Positions 5,132 to 62,833 of a stretch of 64,000 nucleotides of DNA are shown piece by piece. Numbering within the stretch: the stretch's first letter is position 1; the number at the start of each line of letters is the position of its first letter. The notes below the pieces were generated by a model. That model had not been told where the DNA came from. It did not search any database and saw nothing but the letters and a program-made list of their open reading frames with translations. A program made the translations under genes and the position numbers. Source of the stretch: Eledone cirrhosa. Its lineage: Eukaryota. The stretch covers positions 1-64,000 of the forward strand of contig CAXHJY010001228.1 of NCBI GenBank assembly GCA_964016885.1. Direction: 5' to 3'.

Positions 5132-5325
5132 TATTATATATATATATATTACATATATATATATTATATATATATTATATATATATATATTATATATATA
5201 TTATATATATATATAAATGAAAATATATTATATATTATATATGTATATAAATATATATATATAAATGAAAATATATTTTATATATATATTATTTATATAT
5301 ATATATAAATATATATATATATATT

Positions 5326-6038
5326 ATGCACCACCATTTGCAACGCGCAGCCATCACTATTATCATATTTACACATAATTTTTCTTCTGCTGCCACCCGT
5401 CTGTTTCTTACTTTGTACCTTTTACCCTTTCTCGTTCTTTGTATCTTTTACCCTTTCTAGCAGTCTCTCTCTCTGTTAGCCTCCTCCTCAACTTTCACTC
5501 ACTCATTCTCTGCCACTACCTCTCCTCCCCCTTCAAGTTTGACCTGTGTGTAATTCTTTTCTCGCGCGGTCTTGGTCAAGCTGGTATGGAATTTTTTTCT
5601 CTCTCTCTCTTTCGTCTGCGACTTCACAAAACTTATGTTTACCGAATTCGTAGACCAGACCCCTACTTCTTCTTCTTCTTCTTCTCCCCCCCCCCGTTAG
5701 ACCTGTGCGAAATTCCTTCCTTGCTCACATTTCAACCAGGTTTGATAGTCTTTTGTCTCTTGTTCACGATTTCACCGAGTTTATATTCATAGAGATCTGG
5801 GACTTGTTTATTTCTTCTCACTTTCCGTTGCTTAAACCATTTTGTTTGTTACCCTAACGTCCTCTTTATTTACGTGTCCCAACGACTTTTTTTAGCCGTT
5901 GTTCGCACCAACCTGAGGCATATGGCCCTTAAAGCGATGAAATGCCTGGGACGGTTGGAGGGTCACTGATGAAGGACTTACTTTTTCATATGCACCACCA
6001 TTTGCAACGCGCAGCCATCACTATTATCATATTTACAC

Positions 6039-6040
<2 letters not shown>
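5326..6040. mobile_element. Family B element with terminal direct repeat (pseudo-LTR-like)
   Basis: ~50-bp atgcaccaccatttgcaacgcgcagcc...tttacacata at both ends (~5327-5377 and ~5990-6041); flanked by (TA)n; diverged homologue 24243-24553. Confidence 0.65.
5877..5977. ncRNA. Conserved three-way-junction RNA motif of unknown class (copy 1)
   Basis: Stems gtcc/ggac, caacgact/agccgttg, ccaacc/ggttgg, aggca/tgcct; compensatory changes versus 24390-24492. Confidence 0.55.
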
Positions 6041-6133
<93 letters not shown>

Positions 6134-7513: not shown

Positions 7514-7952
7514 AATAGTCATGTAAACATATGTATATATATTTATATCTAGTTATATATGTATGTGTGTGTTTGTGTGTATGTGAGCGTGTCTTAGTAG
7601 TTCAGTATGACATGCTAAGGGGAGCAACTGTTGGCATGTCAGTCAGTGATTGTATGCTGGGTTCTGTAAGTACAGCTAGATAAATAGGTTTTCTACACAC
7701 AGTCACAAAGGCACACACATACATACATACACACATGCACACATATACGCATGTACACATACGCAACATGCACACATACACATATCCACACATACACACA
7801 CATACACACATACACACATGCACACATGCACACCATCACACATGCACACATACATACGTGCACACATACATACGTGCACGCACACACACGTACATCGACG
7901 GAACGTTAACTGGGGGAGGGGTAGATCCAAGACTAATATCACATGATATTAT

Positions 7953-8140
7953 ATAATTGTTTCTACTTTAGGCACAAGGCCAGCAATTACCCAGTGCATT
8001 ACTGGTACTTTGTTTTATCGACCCTGTAAGGATGAAAGGCAAAGTCAACCTCGGCGGGATTTGAACTCAGATTGTAAAGGGACGTAACTCTATGCTTCAA
8101 AGCATGGCGTCCGACACTACCGATACTGCCAATCCACCGC
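7953..8140 (-). mobile_element. SINE-1, full length
   Basis: A-box-like ggattggcagtatcggtag, B-box gagttcaaatcc, same tail. Confidence 0.85.
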
Positions 8141-9600: not shown

Positions 9601-9788
9601 ATAATTGTTTCTACTTTAAGCACAAGGCCAGCAATTACCCAGTACATTACTGGTACTTTATTTATCGACCCCGTAAGGATGAAAGGCAAAGTTAACCTCG
9701 GCGGAATTTGAACTCAGACTGTAAAGGGACGTAACTATGCTAGAAAGCATGGTGTCTGACGCTCTACCGAATCTGCCAATCTACCACC
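9601..9788 (-). mobile_element. SINE-1 near the junction of two satellites
   Basis: Full SINE motifs; flanked on both sides by cacggtattacataat. Confidence 0.85.
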
Positions 9789-9794
9789 CTACAC

Positions 9795-12700
9795 CCACGG
9801 TATTACATAATGACCTAGCTTAAGTAAACAATATCCCACGGTATTACATAATGACCTAGCTTAAGTAAACAATATCCCACGGTATTACATAATGACCTAG
9901 CTTAAGTAAACAATATCACACGGTATTACATAATGACCCAGCTTAAGTAAACAATATTCCACGGTATTACATAATGACCCAGCTTAAGTAAACAATATTC
10001 CACGGTATTACATAATGACCCAGCTTAAGTAAACAATATTCCACGGTATTACATAATGACCCAGCTTAAGTAAACAATATTCCACGGTATTACATAATGA
10101 CCCAGCTTAAGTAAACAATATTCCACGGTATTACATAATGACCTAGCTTAAGTAAACAATATTCCACGGTATTACATAATGACCCAGCTTAAGTAAACAA
10201 TATTCCACGGTATTACATAATGACCCAGCTTAAGTAAACATTATTCCACGGTATTACATAATGACCCAGCTTAAGTAAACAATATTCCACGGTATTACAC
10301 AATGACCCAGCTTAAGTAAACAATATCCCACGGTATTACATAATGAACTAGCTTAAGTAAACAATATTCCACGGTATTACATAATGACCCAGCTTAAGTA
10401 AACAATATCCCACTGTATTACATAATGAACTAGCTTAAGTAAACAATATCCCACGGTATTACATAATGACCTAGCTTAAGTAAACAATATTCCACGGTAT
10501 TACATAATGACCCAGCTTAAGTAAACAATATCTCACGGTATTACATAATGACCCAGCTTAAGTAAACAATATCTCACGGTATTACATAATGACCCAGCTT
10601 AAGTAAACAATATCTCACGGTATTACATAATGACCCAGCTTAAGTAAACAATATCCCACGGTATTACATAATGACCAAGCTTAAGTAAACAATATCCCAC
10701 GGTATTACATAATGACCCAGCTTAAGTAAACAATATCTCACGGTATTACATAATGACCCAGCTTAAGCAAACAATATCCCACGGTATTACATAATGACCC
10801 AGCTTAAGTAAACAATATCCCACGGTATTACATAATGACCCAGCTTAAGTAAACAATATCCCACGGTATTACATAATGACCTAGCTTAAGTAAACAATAT
10901 CCCACGGTATTACATAATGACCTAGCTTAAGTAAACAATATCCCACGGTATTACATAATGACCTAGCTTAAGTAAACAATATCCCACGGTATTACATAAT
11001 GACCCAGCTTAAGTAAACAATATTCCACGGTATTACATAATGACCCAGCTTAAGTAAACAATATTCCACGGTATTACATAATGACCCAGCTTAAGTAAAC
11101 AATATTCCACGGTATTACATAATGACCCAGCTTAAGTAAACAATATTCCACGGTATTACATAATGACCCAGCTTAAGTAAACAATATTCCACGGTATTAC
11201 ATAATGACCTAGCTTAAGTAAACAATATTCCACGGTATTACATAATGACCCAGCTTAAGTAAACAATATTCCACGGTATTACATAATGACCCAGCTTAAG
11301 TAAACATTATTCCACGGTATTACATAATGACCCAGCTTAAGTAAACAATATTCCACGGTATTACACAATGACCCAGCTTAAGTAAACAATATCCCACGGT
11401 ATTACATAATGAACCAGCTTAAGTAAACAATATTCCACGGTATTACATAATGACCCAGCTTAAGTAAACAATATCCCACTGTATTACATAATGAACTAGC
11501 TTAAGTAAACAATATCCCACGGTATTACATAATGACCTAGCTTAAGTAAACAATATCCCACGGTATTACATAATGACCTAGCTTAAGTAAACAATATCCC
11601 ACGGTATTACATAATGACCTAGCTTAAGTAAACAATATTCCACGGTATTACATAATGACCCAGCTTAAGTAAACAATATTCCACGGTATTACATAATGAC
11701 CCAGCTTAAGTAAACAATATCTCACGGTATTACATAATGACCCAGCTTAAGTAAACAATATCTCACGGTATTACATAATGACCCAGCTTAAGTAAACAAT
11801 ATCTCACGGTATTACATAATGACCCAGCTTAAGTAAACAATATCCCACGGTATTACATAATGACCCAGCTTAAGTAAACAATATCTCACGGTATTACATA
11901 ATGACCCAGCTTAAGTAAACAATATCTCACGGTATTACATAATGACCCAGCTTAAGTAAACAATATCCCACGGTATTACATAATGACCAAGCTTAAGTAA
12001 ACAATATCCCACGGTATTACATAATGACCCAGCTTAAGTAAACAATATCTCACGGTATTACATAATGACCCAGCTTAAGTAAACAATATCTCACGGTATT
12101 ACATAATGACCCAGCTTAAGTAAACAATATCTCACGGTATTACATAATGACCCAGCTTAAGTAAACAATATCCCACGGTATTACATAATGACCCTGCTTA
12201 AGTAAACAATATCCCACGGTATTACATAATGACCCAGCTTAAGTAAACAATATCTCACGGTATTACATAATGACCCAGCTTAAGTAAACAATATCTCACG
12301 GTATTACATAATGACCCAGCTTAAGTAAACAATATCCCACGGTATTACATAATGACCCAGCTTAAGTAAACAATATTCCACGGTATTACATAATGACCCA
12401 GCTTAAGTAAACAATATCTCACGGTATTACATAATGACCCAGCTTAAGTAAACAATATCTCACGGTATTACATAATGACCCAGCTTAAGTAAACAATATC
12501 TCACGGTATTACATAATGACCCAGCTTAAGTAAACAATATCTCACGGTATTACATAATGACCCAGCTTAAGTAAACAATATCTCACGGTATTACATAATG
12601 ACCCAGCTTAAGTAAACAATATCTCACGGTATTACATAATGACCCAGCTTAAGTAAACAATATCCCACGGTATTACATAATGACCTAGCTTAAGTAAACA

Positions 12701-12832
12701 ATATCCCACGGTATTACATAATGACCTAGCTTAAGTAAACAATATTCCACGGTATTACATAATGACCCAGCTTAAGTAAACAATATTCCACGGTATTACA
12801 TAATGACCCAGCTTAAGTAAACAATATCTCAC
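9795..12832. repeat. 41-bp minisatellite
   Basis: Unit cacggtattacataatgacccagcttaagtaaacaatatcc, about 74 near-identical copies, no spacers. Confidence 0.97.
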
Positions 12833-17208: not shown

Positions 17209-17657
17209 CACCCCAAACATAAAATTGGGATTATACTAAGGTATATCCTAATGTTTGTTGAGTGAGATGGAAGCCAGTCAGAGTATAGCTTAAACCTTTC
17301 TCTGTTAATGTATTAAATATATATATATATCAAAGGTATATATTGAGTTAGAAATTCAAAAATAGTCTCTTATAATAAAATAGCAATAAAATAGCTCAAG
17401 GAAAGAAATTTTTCCGGGCCGTATATTATAATTGAATGTGAATTGGATCGCGAAACAGCCTCGGCAAACGTTGTCTGGGTGATTGGTAGTTATCACAATT
17501 CCGGTTTGTATTTATTTTCTTGATTTATTCTTAAATTGAGCCTGGCAAACCCTATTGTCCATAGTTAGTATCTTTTTCACCTTAGCGAATCTGGTCCCTT
17601 GCGATTTGAACACATATATGTTTATGTCTGTGTTTTTATCTCTCTTTTATATTCAAT

Positions 17658-18099
17658 TATAATTGTTTCTACATTTGGCACAAGGCCATCAATTATCCCA
17701 GTGCATTACTGGTACTTTATTTTATCGACCCCGTAAGGATGAAAGGCAAAGTCAACCTCGGCGGGATTTGAACTCAGATCGTAAAAGGACGTAACTATGC
17801 TGGAAAGCATGGTGTCTGACCCTCTACCGATACTGCCAATCCACAATGATATATATATATACACACATATATATATATATATAATATACAATACACACAC
17901 ACATATATGTATAGAAGTTTCTATTTTTGGCACAAGGCCAGCTAATACCCAGTACATTACTGGTACTTTATTTTATCGACCCCGTAAGGATGAAAGGCAA
18001 AGTTAACCTCGGCGGGATTTGAACTCAGATCATAAAGGGACGTAACTCTATGCTTCAAAGCAAGGCGTCCGACCCTCTACCGATACTGCCAATACGCCG
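17658..18099 (-). mobile_element. Two tandem SINE-1 copies (17658-17844, 17915-18099)
   Basis: Both with A/B boxes and shared body. Confidence 0.85.
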
Positions 18100-18312
18100 G
18101 CATATAATTATGTATAATACATATATACATATATGTATAATAAACAATACACACACACACACACACGCATATATATATAATATACAATACAATACACACG
18201 CACACACACACACGCATATATAATATACAACACACGTGCACACACAATAATCACCTAGAAAATGCTTCATCATTCTGCACTTAACTCACCAAGCAGCACA
18301 AATCAAAGTAGA

Positions 18313-20353: not shown

Positions 20354-20530
20354 TGGGATTCTACAGGACTAGAACTGTTTCATTCTTTAGAAATCATCAG
20401 ATTCCTGATGATTTCTAAAGAATGAAACAGTTCTAGTCCTGTAGAATCTCATCTATATTAAAACTTTTATACTCTGCTATGTATTGAGTACCTTACTTAC
20501 TGTGGTTACCTCCGATTCAACCCGGAATAA

Positions 20531-22610: not shown

Positions 22611-22980
22611 ACGTCCCTTTATGATCTGAGTTCAAATCCCGCCAAGGTTAACCTTGCCTTTCATCCTTACAGGGTCGATAAAATAAAGTACCAGTAATAC
22701 ACTGGGATAAGTGCTGGCCTTGTGCCGATAGTAGAAACAATTATTTAACATGTATTTATCATGTCAATTAATGCCACCCCACTAAATAGTCACAGTTATT
22801 TTGGGAGTATCGGTAGAGGGTCGGACGCCATGCTTTCCAGCATAGTTACGTCCCTTTATGATCTGAGTTCAAATCCCGCCGAGGTTGACTTTGCCTTTCA
22901 TCCTTACGGGGTCGATAAAATAAAGTACCAGTAATGCACTGGGTGATTGCTGGCCTTGTGCCTAAAGTAGAAACAGTTAT
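22610..22980 (+). mobile_element. Two SINE-1 copies (22610-22743 5'-truncated; 22806-22980)
   Basis: B box gagttcaaatcc and shared tail. Confidence 0.85.
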
Positions 22981-23212
22981 TTATTCTGGAACTTTTCCCC
23001 ACTGATTTGTTTTCTTATTGCTACACGTCACATCGATTACAGTCTGTTGTGAGATGTATTTTACACTTACGTCTCTAAGTCAACACAATCTCTCTCTCGC
23101 TCTCTCTCTCTCGCTCTCTCGCTCTCTACACACACACATACAACCGTATATGTATGTGCAAATAATATATACATATATACTTCTGTATGTACACACAAAC
23201 ACACACACATAC

Positions 23213-24242: not shown

Positions 24243-24553
24243 TCTGCAATTTCGATTTCTTTTCCATCTCGCTCATATATTCACCCAGCTTATACTGATA
24301 GAATAACTATGTAGCTTGTGTCTCTTCCATTCTTCGGTTAGCTTTCCTCTGTGTTGTTTACTTGTCTCACTCGCTTTACGCGTTTTAATTGTCCTAATAA
24401 CTTATTTTAGTTATTATTGCGCCAACGTGAGGTATATGATTTTTAATGCAATGAAATACCTATGACCGTTGGTAAATCACTGATGAGGGACTCATTTTAT
24501 AACATGTTATCCATGTGCAACCATGCAGTATTCTTCTCCCCATTTTTTCACAT
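24243..24553. mobile_element. Family B diverged copy with RNA motif copy 2 (24390-24492)
   Basis: Colinear with ~5700-6040; stems taataact/agttatta, ccaacg/cgttgg, aggta/tacct. Confidence 0.6.
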
Positions 24554-24576
24554 ATATATATATATATATATATATA

Positions 24577-24733
24577 TGGAAAAGAAATCGAAATTGCAGC
24601 TGGAGTCTTTTTAAGAATATTTATTTAATCTTTTTAAAAAGACTCCAGGTACATTTTCGATTTCTTTTCCTTATACTTTCTCCCGTGTAGGACATCTCGT
24701 TTTTATATTAAAAAAACAACTCATTTTCTTACA
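24577..24733. mobile_element. Family G Penelope-type fragment with inversion
   Basis: ggaaaagaaatcgaaattgcagctggagtctttt inverted at aaaagactccagg...cgatttcttttcc; homologous to 36288-36601 and 39145-39217. Confidence 0.65.
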
Positions 24734-24804
24734 TATATATATATATATATCCAAGGGCGGTGCCCCAGCATGGCTTCAGCCGGATGGCTGGAACAGCTAA
24801 AAGA

Positions 24805-30108: not shown

Positions 30109-30344
30109 ATATATATATATATATATGTATGAGTGTGTTTGGTTGAGTGCGTGTGTTTTTGAGTGCATCTATGCGTGTGTGTATATGCGTGCATCTGTGC
30201 ACGTCTTGACCTGTCTGTAAAACTAGAATCCTGTGTTGTTTACGTAAACCAACCAACAACCAATATTTTACTGTCATATATCAAATACTCGGAAAACGAA
30301 CACACACACACAAACATGACGTTATTATATTATATTCCGGATAA

Positions 30345-30956
30345 GGCGCTGGATTGGCAGTATCAGTAGAGGGTCGGACGCCATGCTTTGCAGCATAGAG
30401 TTACGTCACTTTACGGTCTGAGTTCAAATCCCCACCGAGGTTAACTTTGCCTTTCAACTTTACGGGGTCAATAAAATAAAGTACCAGTAATGCACTGGGA
30501 TAATTGCTGGCCTTGTGCCAAAAGTAGAAACAATTATTATAAGTGGATTGGCTGTATCGGTAGAGGGTCGGACGCCATGCTTTCCAGCATAGTTACGTCC
30601 CTTTACGATCTGAGTTCAAATCCCGCCGAGGTTGACTTTGCCTTTCATCCTTACGGGGTCGATAAAATAAAGTACCAGTAATACACTGGGGTAATTGCTG
30701 GCCTTGTGCCAAAAGTAGAAACATTTATATTATATTCCAGTGGATTGGTAGTATCGGTAAAGGGTCGGACGCCATGCTTTGCAGCATAAAGTTATGTTCC
30801 TTAACTGTCTGAGTACAAATTCCGCCGAGGTTAACTTTGCCTCTCGTCTTTGCTGGGTCGATAAAATAAAGTACCAGTAATGCACTGGGGTCGATTTAAT
30901 GGACTTTCCCCTATCCTTCAAATTGCTGGCCTTGTGCCTAAAGTAGAAGCAATTAT
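30345..30956 (+). mobile_element. Three head-to-tail SINE-1 copies
   Basis: ~30345-30537, 30543-30724, 30740-30956; third retains the internal gtcgatttaatggactttcccc segment. Confidence 0.88.
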
Positions 30957-31154
30957 TTATCGAGCTCGAAATGAAGAAAGGCAAAGTTTACATCAGTGAG
31001 GCTTGAACCCGTCCCGATACTCACAACTCGTATCATTCTATCAGTTGGTATATTCCTTGCACATAATAACTATGTAGGGACGACCGGTAACTCCTGATGG
31101 ATTTGTTGGTGATGGTGGGAGTGCCTGAACACTGGGATAATTGCTGGCCTTATA

Positions 31155-31699
31155 TTATATTATACTCTGGATAGCTCCATTCACGATAACCTACACCTCA
31201 TGCGATACATCAGAGGGTGGGTGGCTAAAGAACTTGGCACTTGTGGGTCACTGATCAGCTTAGCTCAATCGAAAGCTTTCGATAGGGTCAATCATCGATA
31301 GGGTCAATCATCGGTACCTGGCAACTGTCTTTCAAAGAGGGACGTTCTATCCCAGCCCCCACAGTCCATTTGTTAAAAGATTGGTGAATGTAGCGAGAAT
31401 TGCCCTAATGGATGGACCTACTCCGACCATGTACCTGTAGGCTAGAGAGTTTTATGGTGAGAAGAGGGACAACTTGCTATGGTGCTCTTGAAGATTAGAG
31501 TGGTTTAGGAACTGTGGGGTCCCTAAATTACCCATGGCTGGTACTCCTCTCTATTGCGGGATTTTTATTGTTAGAATTATATTGTTTATTTTTATCTGTT
31601 AGCTTTTTTTTATACACATTTTATATAAATTCCCACCCTCCCCGTTTTTATATTGTTCCCCCTGTTTCGGCCCTAGTGGCCAATAAATAATAATAATAA
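31155..31699 (+). mobile_element. Internally deleted Tx1/L1-clade LINE remnant
   Basis: Translates IHDNLHLMRY...LISLAQSKAFDRVNHR (RT motif A like DQxKAFDRVxH), then apparent ORF end at ~31440, 3' UTR and aataaataataataa tail. Confidence 0.65.
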
Positions 31700-32283
31700 G
31701 TGTTTCTACTTTTGGCACAAGGCCAGCAATTATCCCAGTGTATTACTGGTGCTTTATTTTATCGACCCCGTAAGAATGAAAGGCAAAGTTAACCTCGGCG
31801 AGATTTGAACTCAGAACGTAAAGGACCGTAGCTCCATGCTGCGAAGCATGGCGTTCGACCCTCTACCAATACTGCCAATCCAATGACTTTATTTTTAAAA
31901 TAATTGTTTCTACTTTTGGCACAAGGCCAGCAATTACCCCAGTGTATTACTGGTACTTTATTTTATCGACCCCGTAAGAATGAAAGGCAAAGTTAACCTC
32001 GGCGAGATCTGAACTCAGACCGTAAAAGGCCGTAACTCTATGCTGCAATGCATGGCGTTCGACCATCTACTGATACTGCCAATCCACCGCCCTATATAAT
32101 TGTTTCTACTTTTGGCACAAAGCCAGCAATAACCCCAGTGCATGATTGGTATACTTTATTTTATCGACCCCATAAGGATGAAAGGCAAAGTTAACCTCGG
32201 CGGAATTTGAACTCAGACCGTAAAGGGCCGTAACTCTGTGCTGCAATTCATGGCGTTCGACCTTCTACTGCCGATCCAGCGCC
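31700..32283 (-). mobile_element. Three head-to-tail SINE-1 copies
   Basis: ~31700-31882, 31899-32091, 32096-32283. Confidence 0.88.
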
Positions 32284-32436
32284 CTATATAATAACGATGT
32301 GTTTTATTTCTTATCTATGTCTATGTCACTAACACATCCTGTTATGGTTGTTTCTGTGTCACTCACACAATTATTAGTATTGTAATGTAGCTGTTGTTTA
32401 TTTTTAGGCTTTCTTTTGGGAGGTCCTATCGTATAC

Positions 32437-34053: not shown

Positions 34054-34236
34054 GTGGATTGGCAGTATTGGTAGAGGGTCGGACGCCATCTTTCGAGCAT
34101 AGTTACGTCCCTTTACGGTCTGAGTTCAAATCCTGCCGAGGTTAACTTTGCCTTTCATCCTTACGGGGTCGATAAAATAAAGTACCAGTAATACACTGGG
34201 TAATTGCTGGCCTTGTGCCAAAAGTAGAAACAATTA
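34054..34236 (+). mobile_element. SINE-1, full length
   Basis: A/B boxes and tail. Confidence 0.85.
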
Positions 34237-34476
34237 TTAATAATTATCAATTAATTCTATCGTGCAATGCCTGTGCATGAAGATATTTTTTTAAATGAGG
34301 AAAGACTGTGCACTGAGCCAATCCCACTCTCTGGGCGACAGTAGCTATAACCCGAAAAGAAGAAAATATCAACATCATCGGTAACTACTGAGCCGCAGGT
34401 TTTATATCGGAGTTATATATATATACACACACACACATATATATATATACACACACACTTATATATATATATATAT

Positions 34477-36287: not shown

Positions 36288-36601
36288 ATAAGGAAAAGAA
36301 ATTGAAAATGCAACTGAAGTCATTTAAGAATGTTTATTTATTTACTTAACCGGTTTCACATTTCTTAGGATTTTCGAAAGTAAAATTGAGATGGAGGGTT
36401 TATGTATTTGTTGTGGACAAACCACATCAGAAACACAAACCCTCCATCTTTTTATTTTGAAAATCATAAGAACTATGAAACCGGTAAAGTAAATAAATAA
36501 ATATTCTTAAAAGACTTCAGTTGCATTTTCAATTTCTTTTCCTTATACTTTCACCAGTGTAGGACATCTCGTTTTTTTTTTTAAAACTCATTATTGTCTT
36601 A
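36288..36601. mobile_element. Family G fragment with long inversion and decayed HHR
   Basis: Arms ~36288-36400 / 36437-36547; GAAA ccgg TA aagtaaa at 36477-36493 with palindromic stem III. Confidence 0.65.
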
Positions 36602-36610
36602 TATATATAT

Positions 36611-36764
36611 AAGTGGCTTAGTTCGGATCTAGCTGTCGAAACGGCCGGAGCTCAGCCGTCGGGGTCCTGACTCTTTTCCTATTAAACACTCTACTACCCT
36701 AAGTATTGAGTACTCTGGTGCGTTATGGTCCACCTGGTTTCTTACTACACCCTCTTTCTTGTTA
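36611..36764 (+). mobile_element. Family D fragment
   Basis: GAAAcggccggagctcagccgTCggggtc followed by the family 3' end. Confidence 0.7.
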
Positions 36765-37643: not shown

Positions 37644-39112
37644 TGCATTATGGGAGGTGCTCCAGAAACTTGGTTGCCCTGATAAGTTCCTTGCTTTAGT
37701 TAGATCTTTCCATGACGACATGAAGGCTTGGGTTAATGTCGGAGGTAACATGTCGGAGCCTATCTCAGTAAAAAATGGAGTGAAACAGGGGAATATTCCA
37801 GCACCGACCCTGTTTGCCATATACTTTGCAATGGTTTTCTATATTGCATTCAGGAATTGCGAGCATGGTGTTTACATCCGATTTCGAACCTCAGGAAGCA
37901 TATTTAACATCAGGCGCTTTGCTGCAAAGACAAAAGTATTTACATCAATCATAAGAGACCTCTTGTATGCAGATGATTGCGATCTTGTAGCGCACACAGA
38001 GAGTGATATGCAGCACATTTTGAATGCATTTTCTGATGCTTGCACTGCCCTAGGATTGACTGTCAGTCTCAAGAAAACCGTCGTCATGTACCAACCTGCC
38101 CCTGGTAAGCAGTACAGTGAACCAAATATCTATGTGTATGGTAAACGACTTGGAGTGGTTGATCAGTTTGTCTACCAGGGAAGCACTGTCAATCGATACA
38201 GCAACCTTGACAGTGAAATCTCACTTAGGATTAGGAAAGCAAGTGATGCTTTCGGAAAGCTAGAAAGGCGACTCTGGGGTCGGCGAGACATATGCAGGAG
38301 GACAAAGGTAAAGGTATACAAGGCATGTGTGCTCTATTGTCTTCTTTATGCCTGCGAGACCTGGGTCACATATCGACACCTCCTTAAGCAATTGGAGCGT
38401 TTCCATCAGATGTGTCTCAGGCGGATCCATGGCGTTAACTGGAGGGACCACATCAGTGATGTCGAGATTTTGGAAAGCTCTATGTGTGACAGTATAGAAG
38501 CTCTTGTGCTTAAGCAACGACTCCGTTGGAGTGGTCACCTTGCCAGGATGAAGGATTCTAGAATACCAAAACAACTCTTTTATGGATAGTTAGTTAAAGG
38601 AAAACGACCGCCACATAAACCAAAAAAGAGGTATAAGGATTCCTTGAAAGCCTCTCTGAAAGACGCTAACATCTCTGCTGATACATGGTAAAATATTGTT
38701 GCTGATCGTAATAAATGGAGAAAGACTGTATATGAGGGAAAAGTTGCCTTTGAGGCATCTCGAATCGCATACGAGAAAGTAAAGCGGGATGTGAGGAAGG
38801 GCATTGCTGTTGCACTTGCAGACGGCGAGGGTCCTCCTATGGTGCTGACATGCAACGTATGTGCGAGACTCTGCCTTAGCAAGGCTGGACTCGAAAGTCA
38901 TCTTCGCAGTCATAAAGTAAGACCAGTGGTTGACTACCAGGCTGCTGTTGGAGATGCTACTCATCATGCTTGCCAAACATGTGGTAGAGAATGTAAATCA
39001 GCAGGAGGGCTCAAACGACATGCAAAAGGACATGAACTCCAACCACAGGCGGCTATTCCCAGTGAATGTTTTGGTTGCCGACTCTGTGCAAGACATTTTA
39101 GATCATTGGCTT
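37644..39112 (+). mobile_element. RTE-clade LINE copy A, 5'-truncated, pseudogenised
   Basis: RT motifs GVKQG, LLYADD, RLRWSGHLARM...RIPKQLFYG; stops at 38587 and 38689; zinc fingers; 3' end replaced by a family G fragment. Confidence 0.93.
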
Positions 39113-39212
39113 TTGAAAAGCAGAAGAACTGCGAAACCGCTAAAGGAACCAAATAAATATATATATTTAAAAAAAAAAAGACTCCAGTTGCATTTTCGAT
39201 TTCATCTTTTTT

Positions 39213-39249
<37 letters not shown>

Positions 39250-57398: not shown

Positions 57399-57503
57399 AC
57401 AATCTATCGTTCAACGTGCATGCGTAAGTTGGGTATTAATGAATAAAGTTTTTAAAATAAAAAGTTTAACAATATTTTTTTAAAATAAAATCGCGTCTAT
57501 AAT

Positions 57504-57691
57504 TGTTTCTACTTTTGGCACAAGGCCAGCAATTATCCCAGTGCATTACTGGTACTTTATTTTATCGACCCCGTAAGGATGAAAGGCAAAGTTTACCTCG
57601 GCGGGATTTGAACTCAGATCATAAAGGGAGGTAACTCTATGCTTCAAAGCATGGCGTCCGACCCTTACCGATACTGCCAATCCACCGCCTT
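57504..57691 (-). mobile_element. Young SINE-1 with 16-bp target-site duplication
   Basis: aaatcgcgtctataat at 57488-57503 and 57692-57707. Confidence 0.92.
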
Positions 57692-58096
57692 AAATCGCGT
57701 CTATAATGAAACAGTTCCCGGTTTGAGTTTAAATACTTAGCAGAGATTTCGTTCCATAATTTTGGTGCTACACCTAATTTTATATAACCAAATATCAACC
57801 AGGCCGTCGATAATGGCAAGCATATATTTTTGATCGGAAGATGCTGGCTGTAATGTAATATCCTATTCTCCAGGGAAAGTTTCATATATCATCTCCTAAT
57901 ATCATAAGTCTGGATCTCAGCATCAACTCGTGAAAGTTCGCCCATTGGGGATACTTGGAGTAGTGAAAGAGGGATATATTTATATATTTACATTATAGCA
58001 TTCGCTATCGTCTGCTACCAATTCACTTTCAACAAGAATGCTTCGCACAATACAATATAAACATGTTTTATACAGACACACACTATCATAAATACA

Positions 58097-61283: not shown

Positions 61284-62833
61284 CTGAAAGATCACAAATC
61301 TAACTTTAACTCTAATCCTTCTATAAGACTTATATTCCCTTCCAAATCTGACATTGGCATCATTAGTAAAAAAAACTTTAGACAGAATCATCCCACCAAT
61401 AAGAAAACACGTTAATTTACCACACTGGGAAAGCACATCCCAAGTAATTTACTTCATTTTTACAATTTGATATAGATGCTTATTATCCCTCTATATCACC
61501 CATACTCCTGAACAAAGCCTTGATATTTGCCAAAAATAGATCAAACTTAACTATGGATGACATTAATATTATCAAACACTACTGGAATTTCAGAAGGAAT
61601 ACTGGACCAGAAATACATATAGTAATCTATTCGATATTACTATGGGCTCTAGTGATTCTACCCAAATTACCGATCTTGTGGGCCTCTTTCTTCTATTTAA
61701 CATACATTCTTCTTTTCCCCACCTTAAAGGTGGTTTATATCGTGATGACTGTCTTCTTCTTCTTTCCAATAACCTTAGCCTATCAGAAATTGAAAAAAAT
61801 AAAAAACTTATTAGAACTGTCCTCAAAGACTATTATAGTCTCACTATTACATTTGAAAACACCAGTAAAGTAGTTAATTTCCTTGATATAACTTTAGACT
61901 TCTCTACGGGTACCTACCAACCTTACCATAAACCTAACCAAAACTTACATTACATACACTCACAATCCAATCACCCTAGATCTATCCTTAAAAACCTAGC
62001 ATATAATATCTCACTCAGAATTTCTAACCTTTCCTCTAACCAGGATGTATTCGATAAAAATGCGCCCTTTTATAACGAAGCTTTAGCTAGAAGCGACCAC
62101 AAAAACAAATTAGTCTATATACCTTGCACCAATAATACTTCAAACATACAACCCAATATTACCAACAAACACCAAATGAAAAACACAACACCTAAATGCC
62201 ACTCACACTACATCCCAAAATACCAACCTAAAACTTAATTTCTCTACCTCTTCTCACATAAAATATAATGACTTTCAAAAAACCATTCATCCTAATACTC
62301 CAATATACCTTAATAACATTACTAACACAATTCCTAATAATCAGACTAAAACACCTAAATCAGTTAATCTAACTAAACCTATATATAATAAATTCACTAA
62401 TACTAATTCTCTTAGTAAACATCCTGATACATCGTATAAATATAAAAAAACAACATCGAAACCGTAATAGACGAGTTACTTGGTATAATGCTCCATTTAA
62501 TCTTCAAATTAAAGATAATATCCCTAAAAATTGTTTTACTATCCTAGAGAAAAACTTCCCGCCAAACCATAAATACCATCAAATTTTAAATAGATCAACT
62601 GTCAAATTTCCCTACTCCACTACCAAAAATATACAACAAAATATAAGTGCGTACAATGCATATAAACCTGACTTGGAGTGTACTCAAAAGGGTCAAAGGT
62701 GTATCAAAATAATAGATATGAGTGTAGATTATGCTCCCAGGAACTTTTTGAAATAATGAAATCTAAGGATATCCTATTAAATAAGCGACAAGAATTAATT
62801 ATATCTTGCAATCATAGAATTAGAAGAACTTTC
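61284..62833 (+). pseudogene. PLE reverse transcriptase / endonuclease C-terminus remnant
   Basis: LKDHKSNFNSNPSIRLI, QFDIDAYYPSI, MGSSDSTQITDLVGL, GLYRDDCL, NFLDITL, YQPYHKPN, SNHP, WYNAPF, terminal LLNKRQELIISCNH; several frameshifts; no GIY-YIG core seen. Confidence 0.85.

Follow-up and report, generated by a model that had tools for sequence, protein, structure and literature searches.

A predicted non-circularly permuted hammerhead in ORF-less Penelope-like elements of Eledone cirrhosa

Permuted hammerheads and the two copies in the window

The hammerhead ribozyme can be divided into the blocks S, G, and C, and a non-circular order of these blocks, type SGC, occurs (Eckert 2023, PMC10085705). 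According to the main text of that paper, type-SGC RNAs cleave in vitro and in cis at 0.007 to 0.19 per min, in some of them the interaction helix joins stem III without a linker, and they were seen in metatranscriptomes, with none in the genomes of known organisms. Non-circularly permuted hammerheads have so far been reported from environmental sequence only. The Naiads, a large animal clade of Penelope-like elements said to be without a hammerhead, have no canonical one according to the relevant passages of Craig 2021 (PMC8557442), where eight families are flagged as "HHR_half_core". A report of a permuted hammerhead in animals or Naiads was not found in the openly accessible literature, including the main text of PMC10085705.

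The window analyzed here, a stretch of 64,000 nucleotides of the E. cirrhosa genome, contains two copies of a repeat family termed B, which lie where the earlier note had placed them and are 70% identical over ~185 nt. Both copies have the hairpin, the two inner helices, and the stem GTCC/GGAC that closes the motif, the five compensatory pairs described between them are borne out by the sequence, and the reported A-C mismatch of copy 1 is there. The topology proposed at the time, a type II-like three-way junction without the hammerhead GAAA, was nevertheless wrong, as GAAA is found at 5939-5942 and 24453-24456. The invariant atgaaa of the earlier note contains G12A13A14A15.1, which is located 5' of CUGAUGA, and from A15.1 onward the RNA pairs with an upstream strand whose last base is U16.1, with A17 next to it. 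The hammerhead core is complete and follows a non-circularly permuted order with two pseudoknots, whose helices had been missed and add four two-sided changes between the window copies, for a total of nine. The motif TCACTGATGARGGAC has 2 occurrences in the window versus 0.09 +/- 0.32 expected by chance, and 1/100 shuffles reached 2.

The carrier of copy 1 (5325..6041, + strand) is an ORF-less Penelope-like unit of family B1, which is located in (TA)n, slightly exceeds one unit (the family B1 monomer measures ~660-750 nt), and has a terminal direct repeat of 53 nt (5325-5377 and 5989-6041). Its permuted hammerhead spans positions 5876..5977 of the + strand and is closed by helix A (5876-5879 with 5974-5977), next to which hairpin H1 (5880-5887 with 5894-5901) forms an arm of a predicted four-way junction at stem II. 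Pseudoknot B, the substitute of stem II (5903-5906 with 5934-5937), ends one base before GAAA, helix C is composed of 5908-5913 with 5953-5958, and stem III of 5916-5921 with 5942-5947, with U16.1 at 5921 and A15.1 at 5942. A17 is position 5922 and the predicted cut is 5922|5923, G12A13A14 is located at 5939-5941, the covarying stem I (5923-5929 with 5959-5965) represents the other pseudoknot, and the C3-A9 core CUGAUGA occupies 5966..5972. Copy 2, likewise on the + strand, resides in a 5'-truncated family B2 unit ending in (TA)n (24259..24559, ends approximate; monomer of ~530 nt), and its motif (24391..24491) comprises helix A (24391-94 with 24488-91), hairpin H1 (24395-402 with 24409-16), helix B (24417-20 with 24448-51), helix C (24422-27 with 24467-72), stem III (24430-35 with 24456-61), A17 at 24436 with the predicted cut 24436|24437, stem I (24437-42 with 24474-79), GAAA at 24453-56, and CUGAUGA at 24480-86.

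In both copies, the order along the RNA is cleavage site, GAAA, CUGAUGA. The strand 3' of CUGAUGA pairs with the 5' end of the motif (helix A) and not into stem II, whose 5' strand comes from upstream, after hairpin H1, where the strand preceding GAAA pairs with it (helix B). The four-way junction that helix A and hairpin H1 form on the core is the predicted route of the stem II strand. Both strands of helix C run on into stem III through short linkers; in family B, the two helices are separated by a 2x5-nt internal loop, and one 10.1-11.1 pair is possible at most.

The functional strand, formerly considered unresolved, is the + strand, because the catalytic core of both copies is found there only and the fixed 3' ends lie downstream on it, and also because A-U to G-U changes shared across subfamilies (in 15 and 19 rows of metagenome alignment A4, see below) would turn into A-C if the opposite strand were read. 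Nested folding gives no strand choice (z of -0.27 for the + and -1.99 for the - strand of copy 1, -2.76 and -3.49 for copy 2). Since stem I and helix B both cross the nested fold, such folding misses them and Rfam is left without a match: no family reached its gathering score at either copy (best 19.6 bits versus 65), and the 150 of 295 matches listed for the whole window were microsatellite miRNA noise alone. By strand order, as judged by eye from consensus features, a reading as SECIS, box C/D, twister, pistol, or HDV was rejected.

Abundance, carriers, and covariation in the genome

The tight pattern had 11,779 matches in the 3.0-Gb genome versus 1 in the control, and each window copy had ~1,450 first-look candidates, the best of them 98-100% identical. 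A second pattern that excluded family B gave 881 matches (overlaps counted) versus 80 in the control and exposed families D and F, which have other stem letters in the same block order. The links to family D and to the metagenome family discussed below rest on architecture and not on sequence, because model R1 detects neither of them. Family E (L121-L125) resembled the motif but turned out to be a canonical type I hammerhead.

The carriers are ORF-less Penelope-like units of 497-791 nt in (TA)n, which often occur in tandem or with inverted 5' pieces; families B1 and B2 are young. Their 3' ends are concentrated at two sites, +68/72 and +118/123 nt after the predicted cut (12/39 B1 ends in the +60 bin and 22/39 in the +110 bin; 36/43 B2 ends in the +120 bin), which matches the two internal RT start sites that explain the Penelope "tail" in the pertinent part of PMC11167929. 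The motif is accordingly situated 70-120 nt upstream of the inferred RT start sites. The 5' ends are scattered round the unit and show no enrichment at the predicted cut (3/107 arrays versus ~1.9 expected; 6 further rows were dropped as reference artefacts). Fixed 3' ends with a tail, 5' truncations, inversions, partial tandems, and a microsatellite target are traits that these units have in common with Penelope-like elements. The template must have been a circle or an uncut multimer, because copies read through the cut site. Long satellite-like arrays of ribozyme-bearing units were observed at C1:81.54-81.64 Mb and C1:43.918-43.924 Mb, with periods of ~515 and ~740 nt. The window also contains an abundant, often tandem repeat of ~190 nt (1610-1792, 7946-8140, 17655-18109, 22611-22984, 30341-30960, 31690-32289, 34054-34250, and 57498-57695) and a 41-nt tandem satellite with ~74 copies (9673-12800).

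Covariation was assessed in alignment A2, i.e., 20 diverged copies that were hand-chosen to span the subfamilies. The six-helix structure pairs 95.6% of its 678 cells, whereas slid control structures pair 25-43%. Two-sided change was present in 16/34 pairs versus 9.2 in shuffles, a count reached by 0/500; none of the 500 shuffles matched the alignment on four of five measures, and A2 was not above the shuffles on the measure "further pair types" (489/500). Since these shuffles ignore relatedness, each of a few subfamily changes enters the count repeatedly. The pairs with two-sided change are distributed over stem I (5/6, with 97.5% paired), helix C (4/6), hairpin H1 (4/8), stem III (2/6, the outer pair being broken in 9/20 rows), and helix B (1/4, with 95% paired and a C-G/U-A swap in 5/20 rows), and helix A has none. 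The former concern that CG-to-TA transitions might weaken the evidence is answered by transversion swaps (columns 41-81, C-G in 10 rows versus G-C in 7; columns 52-93, G-C/U-A in 1 row) and by the families with other stem letters. The motif is a real, selected RNA structure, and the proposal of selection on an RNA fold in a Penelope-like pseudo-LTR is upheld.

The core letters C3U4G5A6N7G8A9 and G12A13A14 were kept in 20/20 rows of A2, a sample partly selected on the core; in most copy sets, the search patterns themselves account for part of the core invariance. The A15.1-U16.1 pair is U-A in 20/20 rows, position 17 is A in 16 rows, C in 3, U in 1, and never G, and N7 varies. Hammerhead chemistry allows H17 and any N7. 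Among incidental copies, which model R1 identified in loci fetched for other reasons, CUGANGA and GAAA were kept in 5/5, and one of these copies (L198) has G17. Overall, the arrangement of letters and helices makes a permuted hammerhead fold very likely.

Relationship to the Naiads

The pointer of the earlier note to Naiads proved right, and two metagenome contigs carry the same architecture downstream of a Naiad RT. In the consensus passages of PMC8557442, inspection by eye recognized it at the ends of Naiad_Amil, Aacu, Anas, Obim, and Ovul, in two unnamed passages (cubozoan and ostracod by file order), and weakly at the end of the Bfor Naiad; places 1-52 of 62 were covered with one core spelling and 7-16 with three others, which is not systematic over 54. 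Nematode Naiads display the canonical hammerhead order by eye in the same source, and the permuted form is thus not present in all Naiads. An arachnid-region consensus (PMC8557442 supplement S5, part 17) is, again by eye, arranged as S-G-C, with stem II directly after the core and a long insert, which brings it nearer to the published type SGC. The hairpin of copy 2 has a 12-nt core in common with the printed Octopus Naiad ends (by eye). Naiads, as characterized in PMC8557442, and the window families are alike in their (TA)n targets, tails, and inverted 5' pieces, but the window families are ORF-less.

A pattern scan of metagenomes revealed at least 119 loci, 40 copies of which were picked as repeat-family members for alignment A4; about 12 of the 31 metagenome rows of alignment A3 were unrelated pattern matches and were kept out of it. 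The structure pairs 94.4% of the 1,747 cells of A4, with two-sided change in 7/45 pairs, a count that 14/500 shuffles reach, and the subfamilies differ by swaps in stem I (closing pair U-A in 19 and C-G in 18), helix C, and helix A. Stem III extends to 13 pairs and helix C to 9. In loci L287 and L310, an RT thumb ends ~230-290 nt upstream of the permuted core on the same strand; the RT motif occurs in only 2 of these 119 loci, and stem I of L287 has a 4-nt insertion. Full-length relatives of this RT (P0005 and P0036, 77% and 72% identical) have an N-terminal GIY-YIG at 91-134 (E of 7e-4, just under the Pfam cut-off). In both contigs, the permuted architecture is situated in the 3' UTR of a Naiad RT. 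Viral contigs had 120 pattern matches, 0/100 of the tested ones matching model R1, and an L217 query found neither protein relatives nor viral loci.

The parent element with an ORF, whose identification had been proposed earlier, was not recovered, as no intact Naiad was found in the E. cirrhosa genome and the 150 scored of 318 candidates were mostly broken. Ten aligned 3' ends of Naiad remnants from this genome contained no recognizable permuted core; the remnants resemble the printed Octopus Naiad proteins (by eye, PMC8557442). GIY-YIG matches in the genome belonged to C-terminal-endonuclease types in 50/50 loci examined, and no ORF with an N-terminal GIY-YIG and an RT was found in the window families. 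An 832-aa ORF beside L127 was rejected as a parent, being antisense and unlinked. A broken Penelope-like RT fragment without a Pfam match is located at 61448-62753 of the window, unlinked to the two copies. On balance, the window families are probably derived from Naiads.

Predicted cleavage and comparison with known hammerheads

Of the two functions once suggested for the motif, a self-cleaving ribozyme or an RT-recognition structure, the former is favored here, with a complete core in place of the supposed topology lacking a GAA junction. Judged from sequence, the motif is likely to cleave its RNA, and it is likewise a good candidate for a complete permuted hammerhead of Naiad-derived, ORF-less elements that would cut its own transcript after A17. 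By the precedent of type SGC and of retrozymes, a tandem transcript would be cut once per unit, after A17, and the monomer would be converted into a circle. With a nick in (TA)n as primer, a Penelope-type RT would then start at one of the two 3'-end sites given above and read round the circle, leaving 1-3 units in (TA)n.

The geometry suggests that helix C continues almost straight into stem III as a single stalk and that the far end of stem III lies on the opposite side of the core from the far ends of stems I and II, a point also made in PMC10085705. A loop of one unit may dock into the junction of the neighboring unit, and cleavage would then need two copies. Because helix C runs into stem III and the far ends point to opposite sides, such a dimer is at least as plausible as a monomer, with about an even chance of being right. 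Minimal Penelope hammerheads are reported to cleave as dimers. A bolder and still tentative proposal is that Naiads from corals to cephalopods possess a seventh hammerhead topology outside the six-permutation scheme, a non-circular S-G-C core that receives its stem II strand via a four-way junction. It would require a domain-swapped dimer for cleavage, and cutting and circularization would in that case be restricted to transcripts with two pseudo-LTRs.

The same fold might also cleave as a single molecule in the manner of type SGC, with helix C and stem III bending at the internal loop and closing a cage. The 2x5-nt loop of family B could kink in this way, and type-SGC RNAs cleave in cis, some without a linker between interaction helix and stem III (PMC10085705, main text), but here stem III is connected to helix C through both strands of the latter, the two helices reach 9 and 13 pairs in A4, and one printed Naiad consensus has, by eye, a 1-nt bulge alone between them, all of which makes this a possible but somewhat doubtful course. 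Little or no cleavage would be required if the hammerhead-derived fold were kept mainly as a recognition site for the RT or endonuclease, which would fit its location upstream of the RT start sites, the absence of 5'-end enrichment at the predicted cut, and the anole Penelope element, whose insertion in vitro is independent of hammerhead cleavage in the portion of the report that describes it. The conserved letters are, however, the exact catalytic set, held across families with differing stems, and H17 and N7 vary as the chemistry allows, so that a mere recognition site is quite improbable.

Two further explanations concern the origin of the motif. Palindromes at the DNA level, combined with CpG decay in an AT-rich repeat, could mimic covariation without any RNA function; many swaps are indeed C-G/T-A transitions, and the nested-fold z-scores are modest and strand-neutral, but the crossing pseudoknot helices covary, transversions included, and other families and other animals show the same architecture with letters that are unrelated, which largely refutes this view and leaves it hardly any likelihood. 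The ribozyme could also be genuine and the window families mobilized by, or derived from, a Penelope-like element other than a Naiad. This genome contains intact Neptune- or Hydra-like elements, its Naiads are present as broken remnants, and long ORFs with a C-terminal GIY-YIG (832-1096 aa) exist. The 3' regions of 8 such Neptune-like ORFs, however, had no permuted core, one family being canonical type I, and the hairpin core shared with the printed Octopus ends speaks for Naiads, which renders a non-Naiad partner rather unlikely. The favored reading is a self-cleaving permuted hammerhead of Naiad descent.

If cleavage holds true, animal chromosomes contain thousands of copies of the permuted form, and what were termed "half cores" in Naiads are complete ribozymes invisible to standard descriptors. 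Ribozyme counts in invertebrate genomes would then be too low, and the assumption that the three hammerhead blocks stay uninterrupted would be broken, by an RNA of 100 nt whose predicted cut site is exact.

Canonical type I hammerhead motifs were observed in other Penelope-like families of the same genome (L188, L192, L193, L196, L202, and L204), and the Neptune-like elements of L190, L205, L206, and L208 end, in their 3' UTRs, in minimal hammerhead-like motifs of type I whose stem III is palindromic (U3/A8 instead of C3/G8 in L190). Tails like that of L190 are located at 24580-24740, 36455-36611, and 39110-39219 of the window, which also contains, at 2396, 2972, and 20400-20405, a repeat with CUGAUGA followed ~10 nt on by GAAAC, in canonical order and in inverted pairs.

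Hammerheads of types I, II, and III proceed from CUGANGA via GAAA to the cleavage site and have no core pseudoknot, in contrast to the order in the window motif. The type I hammerheads of Penelope-like elements and retrozymes (bioRxiv 10.64898/2026.07.22.740005, in the parts that describe them) resemble it in their pseudo-LTR location, ORF-less tandems of 500-800 nt, and likely circular intermediates, but they have the circular order without a core pseudoknot, and their descriptors cannot match it. The tandem, ORF-less organization is a trait of non-LTR retrozymes that the window families have in common with them, although the ribozyme of the window families is not type I. The closest match is type SGC (HRIMA-1, PMC10085705, main text), which has the same block order S-G-C, two core pseudoknots, and all core letters. 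The linker from stem I to the stem II strand has 3 nt in type SGC and 4-5 in the window motif, and the helix that joins the far ends of stems I and II in type SGC presumably corresponds to helix C. Type SGC is metatranscriptomic, whereas the window motif resides in animal DNA with ~12,000 copies. In type SGC, the 5' strand of stem II directly follows CUGAnGA, an explicit assumption of the six-permutation scheme in PMC10085705; in the window motif that strand is situated 5' of block S, and the four-way junction leads to it. The broken block C would explain why the RefSeq searches of PMC10085705 and the type I descriptors missed the motif. It may be regarded as a candidate that works like type SGC yet breaks the rule of an unbroken block C.
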